Assembly: GCA_044358425.1 (NCBI GenBank)
Contig: CP054849.1
Span: 293,101 to 306,814 of the forward strand
Reading direction: 5' to 3'
Length of the DNA stretch: 13,714 nucleotides
From: Marine Group I thaumarchaeote
GTDB taxonomy: Archaea > Thermoproteota > Nitrososphaeria > Nitrososphaerales > Nitrosopumilaceae
This document shows positions 7,557 through 13,714 of this stretch, piece by piece (position 1 is the first letter of the stretch; the number at the start of each line of letters is the position of its first letter). The notes under the pieces are model-generated. The model had not been told where the DNA came from and did no database searches. It saw only the letters and a list, made by a program, of their open reading frames with translations. The position numbers and the translations under genes are program-made.

Positions 7557-7856
7557 ATGGCAACTAAGAAGTCTCATGGCCGTTCACATGGATTTAAACA
7601 TAAATCTAGATCTGTTATGACAAAAAAATCTCCTAGAGGAGTATCATTTTTGTTACGTGAATACCAAGAAGGCCAACAAGCACTTGTCATTATTGATCCT
7701 AGACAGCATAAAGGATTGCCACATAGAAGATATCATGGAAAAGTCGGTGTTATCACAAATGTAGGCAGACGTGCTATAACATTAAGTGTAAAATTGGGAG
7801 ATAAACCAAAAACCTTAATCACTAGGTTAGATCACATAAAACCATTCGGTGTATAA
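7557..7856 (+). CDS. rpl21e: 50S ribosomal protein L21e
   Basis: SHG..KSR, HKGLPHRRYHGKVGVI and K.LI.R.DHIKP motifs; first gene of the conserved L21e-RpoF-DUF655-KsgA cluster. Confidence 0.96.
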   Translation: MATKKSHGRSHGFKHKSRSVMTKKSPRGVSFLLREYQEGQQALVIIDPRQHKGLPHRRYHGKVGVITNVGRRAITLSVKLGDKPKTLITRLDHIKPFGV

Positions 7857-7858
7857 TT

Positions 7859-8185
7859 ATGGAAGAAATACAAAAAAAACAAGCAATTTCACTTTCTGAA
7901 GTAAAAGAAATTTTGGGTAAGGTTGATGTTGAAGAAATGGATCAAATACAACGTTGGACATATGATTATGTTTCAAAGTTTGTAACAATTGATTCAAAAA
8001 ATGCAAAAGACATGAAAAAGAAGCTTATCAAAGATTGTGAATTGACAGAAGATGAAGCAGTTGAAATTGTAAATATCCGACCAACAAGTATGGCCGAATT
8101 ACGTTCATTTACTTTCGGTTGGAAAAAACTAATCCTTGCCGAAACCCTGGAAAAAATGCTCAAAATAATCCAGGAGCATTCTTAA
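7859..8185 (+). CDS. rpoF: RNA polymerase subunit Rpo4 (RpoF)
   Basis: ISLSEVKEIL..Q.WTYDYVSKF..AVEIVNIRPTS.AELRS HRDC-like pattern; synteny after rpl21e. Confidence 0.9.
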   Translation: MEEIQKKQAISLSEVKEILGKVDVEEMDQIQRWTYDYVSKFVTIDSKNAKDMKKKLIKDCELTEDEAVEIVNIRPTSMAELRSFTFGWKKLILAETLEKMLKIIQEHS

Positions 8186-8205
8186 TTTTTCCGGAGCAAT
8201 AAATT

Positions 8206-8772
8206 TTGTATCGGGCACAACCCACTTCTAGAAAGTATGAAGAATACGCATATGTTTTAGATTTTAATCCTAGAGGTAAATCTACAACTGTTCGCGGTAG
8301 GGAGGGAATAATTATCACGGCCATTGGCGAAGACCGTTTAACACTTTTAGAAGTATTAGGTATTCAAAATTCTACTTTTGAAGTTGGAGAAAAAATTTAC
8401 ATCGGTAAGGATGGTAGAACAAAAATTTCATCTGTATTGGGTAAAATGGATTATGAAAAAATTTCAAGTTCTGCTCAAAGTGAATTATCTAACGTAATAG
8501 AAAAAATTGTAACTGAAAATGAAGTTAAATTTGTAAAATATCTTAATAATGCACAACCATTGACTCCAAGAATTCATGCACTAGAATTAATTCCAGGAAT
8601 TGGGAAAACATACATGAAAACAATGTTAGAAGAAAGAGAAAAACAAAAATTTGAAAGTTATTTAGATTTACAGGATAGAGTTGGATTTAAAGATCCGATT
8701 AAACATATTTCTGAACGGATAATGGATGAAATTTCTGGTGAAAGTAGAATGAATCTCTTTGTTAAGAGATGA
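8206..8772 (+). CDS. DUF655 family putative RNA-binding protein
   Basis: EEYAYVLDF, AIGE..LTLLE, NNAQPLTPRIHALELIPGIGK (HhH) and FESY.DL..RV motifs; TTG start; synteny. Confidence 0.9.
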   Translation: MYRAQPTSRKYEEYAYVLDFNPRGKSTTVRGREGIIITAIGEDRLTLLEVLGIQNSTFEVGEKIYIGKDGRTKISSVLGKMDYEKISSSAQSELSNVIEKIVTENEVKFVKYLNNAQPLTPRIHALELIPGIGKTYMKTMLEEREKQKFESYLDLQDRVGFKDPIKHISERIMDEISGESRMNLFVKR

Positions 8773-9473
8773 TAAAACGTAAATTATTGGGACAACACTT
8801 TCTTAATTCAAAATCTATTGCAGAATTCATTGTAAAAGAAGCTGAAATTTCTAAAAGTGATGTAGTTTTTGAAATTGGAACAGGCCCTGGAATTTTAATT
8901 CCTCTGCTGTGTGAAAATGCTCAAAAAGTCATATCTATTGATGCTGATGAAAAATTAATTAAAAAAGCAAGATTAAATTTTTCTCAATTTGATAATCTTA
9001 TACTCAAATCTGGTGATGGATTTAAGCAAAAAGATGCTTTCTCAATTTTTGTTTCTAATTTACCCTACTCAAAAAGTAAAGATGCAATTGAATGGTTGGC
9101 ACAAAATTATTTTTCACATGGGGTAATTATGGTTCAAAAAGAATTTGCAGAAAAATTACTTGCAACAACAAAAAATCGTAGGGCTGTTAGTATTATTGCA
9201 ACATACACACTAGATATTAAAAAAATTTCTGTAGTTGGAAAGAATAATTTTTCTCCACCACCTAAGGTTGATTCTGTAATCCTGAAAATATCGAAAAAAA
9301 CTACTTTAGATAAAAAATTAATTTCTTTAATCAATGATTTATTTTCTTATAGGAGAAAAACTGTAAAAAATATTCTAAAACAATTCAATAAACAAAGTAC
9401 AATAGAGAAACGTATTGATGATCTTTCAGGAGATGAAATAGTTAATCTTGCCAAACAAATTCTTAAAAAATGA
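8769..9473 (+). CDS. rsmA: 16S rRNA m6,2A dimethyltransferase KsgA/RsmA
   Basis: LGQHFL, EIGTGPGIL, VSNLPYS, MVQKEFAEKL, FSPPPKVDS and FSYRRKT motifs; ATGA overlap with the DUF655 stop. Confidence 0.95.
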   Translation: MIKRKLLGQHFLNSKSIAEFIVKEAEISKSDVVFEIGTGPGILIPLLCENAQKVISIDADEKLIKKARLNFSQFDNLILKSGDGFKQKDAFSIFVSNLPYSKSKDAIEWLAQNYFSHGVIMVQKEFAEKLLATTKNRRAVSIIATYTLDIKKISVVGKNNFSPPPKVDSVILKISKKTTLDKKLISLINDLFSYRRKTVKNILKQFNKQSTIEKRIDDLSGDEIVNLAKQILKK

Positions 9474-9984
9474 TGAATATCCTCCCTCTGAGGATACCTT
9501 TTTTGTTGCTAATAATATTGAAAATGAAAAAGGTGCATGTGCTTTAGATATTGGAAGTGGCTCTGGATATTTAACAAAATTACTTTGTAAAAATTTTTCA
9601 TTTGTGATTGGAACTGATATTAATTATAAAGTACTACAAAATCAAAGTTCTTACAAAACAGATAATTTGATTTGTTGTAATAGTTCTGATGCCTTAAAAA
9701 TAAAATTTGATCTTATTGTTTGTAATTTACCTTATCTGGCCACAGATGAAATTTTAGATATTGCCACTGATGGTGGTTCAGAAGGATTTGAAATTCCTAA
9801 AAAAATATTTGATTCTGCCATACCTAATCTTAAACAAAATGGAAAATTTATTTTTGTAACTTCTTCATTATCTAATTATTCAAAATTAATAGACTATAGT
9901 AAAAAATTAGGCTTAACCACAAAAATTATTGCTCAAAAGAAACTTTTTTTTGAAGAATTAATTCTTGTAGAGGCAAGAAATTAA
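9448..9984 (+). CDS. HemK2/Mtq2-like SAM-dependent methyltransferase (probable release-factor glutamine methyltransferase)
   Basis: YPPSEDTFF, LDIGSGSG, GTDIN, CNLPYL (NPPY-like), DGGSEG and LFFEEL motifs; follows ksgA as in many archaea; the TTG start overlaps rsmA. Confidence 0.8.
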   Translation: MPNKFLKNDEYPPSEDTFFVANNIENEKGACALDIGSGSGYLTKLLCKNFSFVIGTDINYKVLQNQSSYKTDNLICCNSSDALKIKFDLIVCNLPYLATDEILDIATDGGSEGFEIPKKIFDSAIPNLKQNGKFIFVTSSLSNYSKLIDYSKKLGLTTKIIAQKKLFFEELILVEARN

Positions 9985-11330: not shown

Positions 11331-11417
11331 GCGGGGGTCGCCTAGCCTGGTAGGGCGTAGGATTGCTAATCCTATGTTCGCAAGAACTCGTGGGTTCAAA
11401 TCCCTCTCCCCGCGCCA
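11331..11417 (+). tRNA. tRNA-Ser(GCT), intron-less, CCA encoded
   Basis: Acceptor stem GCGGGGG/TCCCCGC, G73 and CCA; D-loop AGCCTGGTA; anticodon arm TAGGA-TTGCTAA-TCCTA; long variable arm GTTC-GCAA-GAAC; T-loop TTCAAAT. Confidence 0.97.
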
Positions 11418-11452
11418 TTAAAACTTAATAGACCGGATAAGTCAGTTTTTTC

Positions 11453-11614
11453 ATGGGACGTAGAAAAAGTCAAAAAATTATTCGCACAGGCCCAAAAAAT
11501 GCTACAACTGGTATGTGCCCTTTATGTCAAACAATTGGAAAAATCTTCCTTTTAGGTTCACCTGGTGAAGAAAGAGCAAAATGTGAAAAATGCCGCCAAG
11601 AATTTGAATTATAG
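11453..11614 (+). CDS. 53-aa zinc-ribbon protein resembling transcription elongation factor Elf1/ELOF1
   Basis: Hand translation: MGRRKSQKIIRTGPKNATTGMCPLCQTIGKIFLLGSPGEERAKCEKCRQEFEL*. CPxC-x18-CxxC with a basic N-tail; TATA-like CTTAATA at 11424-11430. Below the ORF-track cutoff. Confidence 0.75.
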   Translation: MGRRKSQKIIRTGPKNATTGMCPLCQTIGKIFLLGSPGEERAKCEKCRQEFEL

Positions 11615-11663
11615 TTAAAGCTGTCAAATACACCTATTATCTTTAATTTTCTGACTATTCATA

Positions 11664-11783
11664 ATGTTGAAGGTTTACCAAGTTCTCAAGAAATTTGATT
11701 CAAAGAAAGATTATGGATTTGATATTCGTCCACAATATGCAAAATGTCTTGCAGTAATGAAAAAGGGCGAGAAGATTGATTAA
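11664..11783 (+). CDS. Possible 39-aa hypothetical protein
   Basis: MLKVYQVLKKFDSKKDYGFDIRPQYAKCLAVMKKGEKID* fills the gap between two same-strand genes; AT-rich TATA-like sequence at about 11635-11648. No motif recognised. Confidence 0.35.
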   Translation: MLKVYQVLKKFDSKKDYGFDIRPQYAKCLAVMKKGEKID

Positions 11784-11811
11784 CTAGAACGACTCATATG
11801 GTATGTACCTT

Positions 11812-12090
11812 ATGTCAAATGCGCTTATAGAATTATTAAATGAAATTAATAATGAACTGACCAATCAGATTTCTTTGGTCAAAAATGCAGATGCAAAAAT
11901 AGATACGAGAAAACTTTTTCAGCTATCAAAGACTCTAAATGATATCATTCTTACATCTGAGATTACCCCAGAAAACAAGTCAATGCTGCAAAAATTCTCC
12001 CTGACTCTACAGGATAGTTCAACTGCCAAGAGTCTGAGATATGAAAAGCAAGACCTTGAAAGGGTAATTTCCAACCTGAAAGACATCTAA
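11812..12090 (+). CDS. Hypothetical alpha-helical protein (92 aa; alternative start 11803)
   Basis: Open frame with amphipathic Leu/Ile periodicity; no recognised motif. Confidence 0.65.
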   Translation: MSNALIELLNEINNELTNQISLVKNADAKIDTRKLFQLSKTLNDIILTSEITPENKSMLQKFSLTLQDSSTAKSLRYEKQDLERVISNLKDI

Positions 12091-13172: not shown

Positions 13173-13714
13173 TCATTTGAATTTACTTGATATGGAATAC
13201 AAATTCAATTTTATTTTAAATTCATGAAATCTGTGTCTTATTGAGACTGAACTGGTTCCTGCAGCTTCTGCTATTAAAACTTGAGATTTTGACTCCCCTG
13301 TAATCACACATGCTGCATAAATTGCAGTTGCAGCAATGATTTCTGGATTTTTACCAGATACAATTCCTGCATCATGGGCTGCATCTAAGATTTGAATTGC
13401 TTTACGAACTGTTTTTTCAGGTATGTTGATTTTACTTGCAATTTTACTAATTGATTTTATAGGATCAACTACAGACACTGTAAATCGTAATTCTCTAAAC
13501 AGTATACGATATGCCCTTGTCAATTCTTTTCTTTGTGTTACAAATTGTTTTGCAATTTCATTTAGACTTCTGATGCAGTCCAGGTCCCTACATGATGCAT
13601 ATAGGCATGCTGCGGCAATTGATTTTACAGTTCTTCCACGAATAAGGTTTCTTTCTATTGCTTTTCTGTAAAAAAGAGATGCTCTTTCTATTACTGGATC
13701 TGGAAGGCCTAATT
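13173..13714 (-). CDS. tfb: Transcription initiation factor IIB (TFB) paralog, C-terminal cyclin repeats; 5' end outside the window
   Basis: The frame is open to the window edge: LGLPDPVIERASLFYRKAIERNLIRGRTVKSIAAACLYASCR..RSLNEIAK..KELTRAYRILFREL..DPIKSISKIAS..GKNPEIIAATAIYAAC..SQVLIAEAAGTSSVSIRHRFHE. The track ORF 13173..13523 covers only the distal part. Confidence 0.93.
   Translation of the reverse strand, partial: LGLPDPVIERASLFYRKAIERNLIRGRTVKSIAAACLYASCRDLDCIRSLNEIAKQFVTQRKELTRAYRILFRELRFTVSVVDPIKSISKIASKINIPEKTVRKAIQILDAAHDAGIVSGKNPEIIAATAIYAACVITGESKSQVLIAEAAGTSSVSIRHRFHEFKIKLNLYSISSKFK

Follow-up and report, generated by a model that had tools for sequence, protein, structure and literature searches.

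Among the few elongation factors that archaea and eukaryotes have in common is Elf1/ELOF1. The accessible text of the respective publications describes it as a C4 finger with an N-terminal basic run (PMC2732611) and as a zinc-ribbon domain preceded by a basic N-terminal tail, which possibly touches downstream DNA (PMC7289017). In RNA polymerase II complexes, as far as the accessible part of the source describes them, the protein is flanked by the lobe of Rpb2 and the clamp head of Rpb1 and helps to form the DNA entry tunnel (PMC8136819). The accessible part of a 2018 review places Elf1 in Cren-, Kor-, Aig-, Bathy- and Asgard archaea (PMC7289017), and the profile and tBLASTn searches reported in the accessible text of Daniels et al. 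(2009) retrieved no Elf1 from N. maritimus or C. symbiosum (PMC2732611). Literature searches on Elf1 in Nitrososphaerota or ammonia-oxidizing archaea (AOA) returned nothing relevant, and those combining Elf1, Thaumarchaeota and elongation factor returned no description of such a protein in the text portions covered, supplementary files lying outside both searches. The current work concerns a stretch of 13,714 nucleotides (here called the window) from a Marine Group I thaumarchaeote of the Nitrosopumilaceae (NCBI GenBank assembly GCA_044358425.1, contig CP054849.1, positions 293,101 to 306,814 of the forward strand; genome G000 in our set), and in particular an open reading frame (ORF) at window positions 11453..11614 (+), whose 53-residue product is referred to as the mini protein. 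Sequence comparison demonstrates that this protein resembles the first 54 residues of canonical Elf1, and it probably represents, at about 0.6, a truncated and relocated Elf1 derivative with a putative function in elongation.

The mini-protein coding sequence starts with ATG and ends with the TAG stop codon at 11612..11614 (+), which is included in the coordinates given above. Its basic N-terminal tail (residues 1-21, 11453..11515, +) starts MGRRK and contains six Arg/Lys residues and no Asp/Glu, and is followed by a first zinc knuckle, CPLC (Cys22 and Cys25, 11516..11527, +), an 18-residue spacer and a second knuckle, CEKC (Cys44 and Cys47, 11582..11593, +), before the protein ends with the sequence RQEFEL. 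The 53-residue frame described by the first-pass annotation, with its MGRRKS start, basic tail, CPLC-x18-CEKC arrangement and RQEFEL end, was thus recovered in full, and it is the sole ATG frame of at least 30 amino acids in the genome that starts M-G-[RK][RK][RK]. Both the C4 signature of the Elf1 family, in which two CxxC knuckles form a ribbon, and the Elf1-type basic run at the N-terminus are therefore present.

Three sets of sequences were used to compare the mini protein with its relatives and with Elf1: profile A1, representing the mini proteins of the Nitrosopumilaceae (family f1); alignment A5, comprising 35 mini-family sequences from f1, from the Nitrososphaeraceae (f3) and from f5, which, like f2, denotes a further AmoA-bearing family; and set A3, comprising 13 canonical Elf1 proteins of 78-86 amino acids from other families of the class. 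Like the mini protein, canonical archaeal Elf1 (PF05129, about 78-86 amino acids) starts with MG and an Arg/Lys run, is encoded in a single copy per genome, and carries a CPxC...CxxC arrangement, with a spacer of 17-19 residues in most of A3 compared to 18 in the mini protein. The first Cys is residue 22 in the mini protein and in 8/13 of the A3 sequences, and residue 23 in the other five. All four Cys residues are invariant across the 35 sequences of A5. The two proteins differ in what follows the ribbon, where canonical Elf1 continues for about 30 residues with a strand, a helix and an I-D motif that is invariant in A3, whereas the mini protein lacks this segment and ends six residues after Cys47.

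Alignment of A5 with A3 by hhalign yielded 96.8% (P 2.7e-10, score 51.6) over a path running from Met1 of both families to the end of the mini protein (column 54), as compared to 27.4 (63.5%, within a range of 63.5-70%) for S27e, 21.9 (26%) for L37ae and 12.9 (1.2%) for L37e. When the columns of the tail were shuffled (n=150) the mean score was 33.4 with a maximum of 45.2, and shuffling of all columns except the Cys knuckles (n=150) gave a mean of 27.2 and a maximum of 44.6, so that none of the shuffles in either series reached 51.6. Alignment of the tails alone gave a score of 25.5 between the mini family and Elf1 (93%, 15 columns), compared to 7.7-11.5 for the tails of S27e, L37ae and L37e. 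Considering that the tail scores exceed those of the controls and the ribbon scores do not (see below), the specific signal is the tail in register with the ribbon.

Pairwise comparisons pointed in the same direction, with BLASTP aligning residues 1-52 of the mini protein to residues 1-54 of an Elf1 from another order with 17/54 identical residues (31%) and two one-residue gaps, at an E-value of 4e-6 that refers to a single comparison, the best of 13. The ungapped alignment of a Nitrososphaeraceae member with another Elf1 extends from Met1 up to the first knuckle (13/25 identical, E 2e-7), this being the best of many pairs. In addition, each of the 35 mini proteins was compared with a decoy set of 184 small ribbons, consisting of 13 Elf1, 30 S27e, 11 L37ae and 11 L37e proteins, seven members of a tail-less ribbon family, and 112 sequences representing all other small ORFs of the window's genome with two CxxC motifs. 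Elf1 was the top match for 30/35 mini proteins, drawn from all three families, the remaining five matching best to a genome ORF (four) or to S27e (one). Searches with the A5 profile in 35 Elf1-bearing genomes retrieved canonical Elf1 as the best match, aligned from residue 1 or 2, in four genomes (G237, E 2.9e-4; G230, 0.008; G214, 0.010; G235, 0.023), while the other 31 gave nothing at an E-value of 0.05 or ribbon-only matches.

The mini ORF is a real gene under purifying selection. The start, length and TAG stop are constant in 30/30 same-genus loci, and the 30 coding sequences are all distinct as DNA and encode just 15 distinct proteins, with a pN/pS of 0.07 (mean pN 0.034, mean pS 0.476, over 435 non-independent pairs from the 30 loci), which makes the frame more than a chance ORF. 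A word-indexed search furthermore recovered 44 homologous protein clusters with 66-96% identity, nearly all of 53 residues. A TATA-like element read from the sequence, AAACTTAATAG (11421..11431, +), has its C at 29 bases from the ATG and its centre about 27 bases 5' of it, so that the messenger RNA (mRNA) would be leaderless or nearly so; the element that the first-pass annotation had pointed out is present in identical form in 29/30 same-genus loci and with a single change in the remaining one, at 29-31 bases from the ATG, and by eye the Nitrososphaeraceae homologues carry TTTATAAA- or TTTATTAA-type boxes at a similar distance. Upstream of this element, and outside the protein gene, ARAGORN identifies the tRNA-Ser(GCT) gene after which the ORF had been placed (11331..11417, +), 35 bases upstream of the ORF. 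The ORF is covered by contigs assembled from RNA libraries of four runs in three studies, including a 174-base contig that spans 11461-11634 with zero mismatches, and these contigs carry no weight as a proof of expression because transcript ends and DNA carry-over are undecidable from contigs. A short length, a genomic G+C content of just 26.6% and RNA evidence limited to contigs are what one would expect of a fortuitous frame in AT-rich DNA behind a tRNA, an explanation already refuted by conservation, namely by the low pN/pS, by the start, stop and length kept in every same-genus locus, by the four Cys residues invariant over three families and by the conserved promoter element.

An extension of the protein past its stop codon was also considered, given that the Pfam Elf1 model runs through the TAG in several genomes (profile 1-71, '1 TAG'). 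Because the downstream frame is unconserved and stop-rich in the 30 loci, this apparent read-through was attributed to the local alignment procedure and dismissed. The 3' flank (11615-11900 in the window, with the corresponding region of L033-L062) differs between congeners, with at least two unrelated downstream sequences recurring among them, so that this flank is a variable spot next to a fixed gene and promoter.

With the A1 profile, a single mini copy was found in 112/114 other Nitrosopumilaceae genomes (including the unpublished genome G132), and a weaker match in 14/14 Nitrososphaeraceae genomes. The Nitrososphaeraceae homologues comprise 56-57 residues and start MGSRKRK; their first Cys is residue 22 or 23, the spacing of 18 residues is retained, and they terminate three residues later. 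The f5 homologues, present in 3/8 genomes, are 53 residues long and start MARRRR or MARKRR. In a survey of the order covering 81 genomes, in which canonical Elf1 was called at E<=1e-20 (A3) and the mini protein at E<=1e-15 (A5), archaeal AmoA was found in 30 genomes, which correspond exactly to families f1, f2, f3 and f5. Canonical Elf1 was present in 35/51 AmoA-less genomes as compared to 0/30 AmoA-bearing ones, and the mini protein in 18/30 AmoA-bearing genomes (f1 8/8, f3 7/7, f5 3/8, f2 0/7) as compared to 0/51 of the others, and none of the 81 genomes held both forms. At the level of the class, the Pfam Elf1 cut-off was passed in 49/201 genomes and by none from f1 (114 plus the window's own), f3 (14), f2 (5) or f5 (2), and the genome search of G000 revealed no other Elf1 candidate. 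Elf1 may have been lost at the origin of AOA, with a relocated mini-Elf1 of 53-56 residues taking over its work at the polymerase in most lineages, a scenario put forward tentatively and at slightly less than even odds.

Family f2 lacks both the canonical and the mini form in 7/7 genomes, and a DNA-level search for the pattern M-G/A-[basic]x3...CPxxC gave no match in three f2 genomes. Loss of Elf1 without replacement therefore occurs, and the complementary pattern could accordingly result from such a loss combined with an unrelated gain. This observation lends weight to a second explanation, which we judge to be the less probable of the two and still a serious one, namely that the mini protein is a lineage-specific nucleic-acid-binding zinc ribbon (ribosomal, RNA-binding or DNA-binding) that was not derived from Elf1 and acquired its combination of tail and C4 ribbon by convergence. 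The same DNA pattern matched in two f5 genomes, where the hits include two genes that, on our reading of their motifs, are radical-SAM-like and were discarded. Two further observations concern copy number: 6/7 Nitrososphaeraceae genomes encode, besides the mini protein, a second and tail-less paralogue, located in ORFs of 45-71 amino acids that match the A5 profile over positions 10-52 at E 1e-6 to 9e-10 (for example L075:2995-3138 (+), G120:C1:706908-707024 and G159:C1:1116887-1117006), and the f5 genome G251 contains two mini-protein copies.

The genomic position of canonical Elf1 was established from six annotated loci, in four of which a PcrB-family gene comes directly after it. The gene for the PolD large subunit (DP2) follows PcrB in two of these four (L014, L004) and stands directly after Elf1 in the fifth locus, whereas genes for ribosomal proteins surround Elf1 in the sixth. 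PcrB remains adjacent to the PolD large-subunit gene in the window's genome, where the divergent upstream neighbour is retained as well, its similarity to the counterpart beside canonical Elf1 being supported by a BLASTP E-value of 3e-6. The gap between this divergent neighbour and PcrB measures 2-68 bases and contains no Elf1, leaving the ancestral slot empty. In G000 the PcrB and PolD large-subunit genes are situated at the contig end (G000:C1:1354915-1357507, L187), and since the divergent neighbour runs off this end, the contig was probably cut inside the PcrB/PolD block. Under the preferred reading, canonical Elf1 would have been lost from its old PcrB/PolD site in ammonia oxidisers, with the slot left empty, and f1, f3 and part of f5 would possess a shortened derivative, consisting of tail and ribbon without the helix, at new sites.

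The site occupied by the mini gene is indeed unlike that of Elf1, as it is placed behind tRNA-Ser(GCT) and a gene of the isocitrate/isopropylmalate dehydrogenase family and not ahead of PcrB/PolD-DP2. The linkage to tRNA-Ser(GCT), whose conservation the first-pass annotation had proposed to check, holds in 26/30 same-genus loci, where the tRNA is directly upstream, and in 0/11 Nitrososphaeraceae and 0/2 f5 loci, and no shared neighbour tying the f3 or f5 mini genes to PcrB was found.

Several further results weigh against the assignment to Elf1 and favour the alternative of an unrelated ribbon. Against the Elf1 profile, S27e reaches 92-94% (38.8-42.2), L37ae 86-89% and L37e 75-90%, and the family of 71-amino-acid tail-less ribbons of the window's genome reaches 95.8% with a score of 46.2, so that, with unrelated ribbons attaining 75-96%, the Elf1 ribbon profile must be considered promiscuous. 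When the ribbon alone was aligned with Elf1 by hhalign, the mini family scored 26.3 and the control ribbons 25.9-33.0; the mini ribbon is thus no closer to Elf1 than are the controls, which leaves some 15 low-complexity columns of the tail as the basis of the Elf1-specific signal. A basic tail followed by a C4 ribbon is, moreover, also the build of S27e, L37e and L37ae.

Searches with family models gave a similar result. A Pfam search with the mini protein returned 13.3 bits (E 0.091) against a cut-off of 29.8 for PF05129, with residues 2-52 aligned to profile positions 1-57 (14 bits when the mini ORF was scored in the genome search), and Cas12f_TNB and IBR slightly outscored PF05129, so that other ribbon families did equally well or better. 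Among 33 family members examined at E<=1, PF05129 was matched by 10 (best E 0.0034) and Cas12f_TNB by 24, and just 1/9 Nitrososphaeraceae-side sequences matched PF05129. An f5 homologue that could serve as a bridge matches PF05129 at E 0.009, with other ribbon families scoring better. Within its own genome, the mini ORF was ranked sixth of 7933 ORFs by a hidden Markov model (HMM) of A3 (12.2 bits, E 0.056), fell outside the top 12 with an HMM of the N-terminal part of Elf1, and gave no match at E<=1 with the canonical Elf1 profile. With the 13 canonical Elf1 proteins as BLASTP queries against the genome, the mini ORF was the top hit for one, in second or third place for three, fifth for one and twelfth for one, and was missed by seven, no E-value falling below 0.018. 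The A1 profile had 0 matches at E<=10 among Protein Data Bank (PDB) sequences, a profile search of 1.84 billion representatives yielded 21 matches at E<=0.001, all from the mini family itself, and the ESM Atlas returned own-family clusters and generic zinc proteins only.

Other ORFs that were picked up by the Elf1 profiles were inspected and rejected as Elf1 candidates. An 836-amino-acid ORF encodes a DEAD-box helicase with a zinc ribbon, and on our own reading of the sequences, made without a family search, ORFs of about 140 amino acids correspond to aIF2-beta, two of 54-55 amino acids are LysW-like and one is S27e. The 71-amino-acid tail-less ribbon of G000 (268604-268816) was likewise set aside, having conserved neighbours of its own and not being located beside PcrB.

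This last ORF (G000:C1:268604-268816, -), which lies outside the window, belongs to a second conserved C4 ribbon family whose f2 members (L085-L089) have 53-55 amino acids. The family has no basic tail, its ribbon gives the 95.8% against Elf1 mentioned above, and its C-terminal part is conserved and, on our own reading, helical-looking. Its neighbours are a membrane protein of about 200 amino acids and, by eye, a Sua5/YrdC-like gene.

Structure prediction did not single out Elf1 either. The AlphaFold2 model based on A5 (mean pLDDT 80.6) has a disordered tail and four strands, E17-21, E28-34, E41-44 and E50-52. Its fold matches include TFS4 (Z 4.1), an Rpb9-type ribbon (Z 4.3), L44e (Z 3.7-4.3) and the regulatory chain of ATCase (Z 3.7-4.0), the Elf1 chains 6ir9_M (Z 3.0, rmsd 1.9 over 39 residues), 1wii (Z 2.5) and 9er2_O (Z 2.3) being placed among generic ribbons. 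Foldseek against the PDB gave no match at E<=0.001 with the mini model (top match 5m5w_I, E 0.33), and via a second fold search no Elf1 chain was found among the 50 matches listed. In the comparison by predicted fold that the first-pass annotation had proposed, the best matches were generic ribbons, and the Elf1 chains reached only Z 2.3-3.0. A canonical Elf1 of the same order, modelled in the same way, has three strands and a long C-terminal helix (H70-84) and matches ELOF1/Elf1 at Z 8.2, 7.8, 7.1 and 7.0, ahead of the next fold (4.8); set against this range of 7.0-8.2, the mini protein attains 3.0. The Elf1 fold is thus recognised by its helix, and a helix-less ribbon such as that of the mini protein is consequently unassignable by structure.

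The C-terminal ribbons of TFS/TFIIS, Rpb9/RPA12/RPC10 and TFS4 are, like the mini protein, four-stranded C4 ribbons, and these known ones bind RNA polymerase; it is to this group that the structures matching the model best belong, namely 7oqy_Y (Z 4.1) and 8qsz_I (Z 4.3, rmsd 2.6 over 41 residues). The ribbons of the TFS/TFIIS type differ from the mini protein in having no sequence signal in common with it and no N-terminal basic tail, the Z-scores being at the level of generic matches, and they form the C-terminal part of two-domain proteins with an acidic hairpin (the hairpin as described in the accessible part of PMC7289017). That the best fold matches comprise L44e as well as ribbons of RNA polymerase and TFS fits a nucleic-acid-binding ribbon of other origin, as do the equal or better scores of generic Pfam ribbon families, the short and low-complexity tail, and a ribbon that is not specifically Elf1-like. 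Against a convergent origin speak, on the other hand, the tails of S27e, L37ae and L37e, which align with neither the mini tail nor the Elf1 tail (7.0-11.5 versus 25.5), the end-to-end pairs sharing 31-33% identity with Elf1, Elf1 as top decoy in 30/35 cases, the matching position of the first Cys, and the finding that no searched genome holds both proteins.

The proposal of a truncated Elf1 in the first-pass annotation thus finds backing in the end-to-end alignment, the specificity of the tail, the decoy result and the complementary distribution. What that annotation had named as speaking against its own proposal was in each instance partly observed: the best Pfam and fold matches are generic ribbons, the ribbon part is no more Elf1-like than those of S27e, L37e or L37ae, the Pfam threshold is not reached, and the tRNA linkage is limited to the genus sample. 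As it scores below the threshold of PF05129, lacks the C-terminal helix and occupies a gene position other than that of Elf1, the mini protein is not assigned to this Pfam family.

Derivation from one of the ribbon proteins already known, as a divergent copy of L37ae/L43e, S27e, S27ae, L37e, L40e, Spt4 or Rpo12, was weighed separately. S27e (eS27), L37ae, L37e and L44e are small proteins that combine, like the mini protein, a basic N-terminal stretch with a C4 ribbon of similar size and layout, and most Nitrososphaeraceae copies of the mini protein are labelled 'ribosomal protein L37AE/L43A' by JGI/IMG (9 listed cluster members of the Nitrososphaeraceae type). No alignment was obtained, however, between the tail of the mini protein and those of S27e, L37ae and L37e, and the window's genome has separate, above-cut-off genes for all three and also for S27ae (70.2 bits) and Spt4 (48.4 bits). 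Another ORF is the weak candidate for L40e, the Rpo12-like matches in relatives are other ORFs of 59-73 amino acids, and the hhalign values of the mini family given above for L37ae, L37e and S27e do not approach the one for Elf1, which leaves this explanation close to refuted. As regards Rpo12 itself, the Pfam Rpo12/RPAB4 model (PF03604) passed its cut-off in 0/31 Nitrososphaeria genomes and at E<=0.001 matched only ORFs of 59-73 amino acids in six genomes; family libraries thus recognise proteins of about 50 residues poorly, and the very small zinc-ribbon subunits of this class are under-detected.

In public records the mini protein is usually named 'hypothetical protein', and some copies bear the JGI/IMG label 'transcription elongation factor Elf1'. 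Considering that this automatic label already exists, the gene is not generally unannotated and has not been overlooked everywhere; the literature, for its part, lists Elf1 as found in neither N. maritimus nor C. symbiosum.

From the resemblance to Elf1 we infer common descent, zinc binding, binding to RNA polymerase and a role in elongation. According to the proposed mechanism, an independently transcribed gene would give rise to a 53-residue protein composed of a 21-residue basic tail and a four-stranded Cys4 ribbon. If the protein works as Elf1 does, its ribbon would bind where downstream DNA enters the polymerase, flanked by the lobe of Rpo2 and the clamp head of Rpo1, its basic tail would extend to the entering DNA, and the protein would act jointly with Spt4/5 in elongation. 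The putative partner subunits encoded in the window's genome are Rpo2 (1116 amino acids, lobe 170-343) and Rpo1 (1264 amino acids).

If the derivation from Elf1 is correct, ammonia oxidisers, which are among the most abundant archaea, would have an Elf1-type factor, and the gap in its distribution would be an artefact of detection. The C-terminal helix of Elf1 would then be dispensable, and the mini protein would represent the smallest natural version of this archaeal-eukaryotic factor and a natural deletion experiment, the helix-less core of which could separate the polymerase-binding from the DNA-acting parts of Elf1. If the protein is not derived from Elf1, it would still be a near-universal, strongly constrained and uncharacterised small protein of the Nitrosopumilaceae and Nitrososphaeraceae.

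The genome that contains the window consists of one contig of 1,357,507 bases with a completeness of 91% and a G+C content of 26.6%. In the window itself, a set of genes on one strand (7557-9984, +) encodes L21e, Rpo4 (Rpb4 family), DUF655, a KsgA-type rRNA dimethylase and a small methyltransferase. Downstream of the mini gene, at a distance of 1.5 kb, lies a gene for transcription factor TFB (13173-13712, -), which is cut by the end of the window and whose TFIIB cyclin repeats are matched at E 5.7e-32. The ORFs between the mini gene and TFB have 39, 95, 73 and 94 amino acids, the last three being without a Pfam match.

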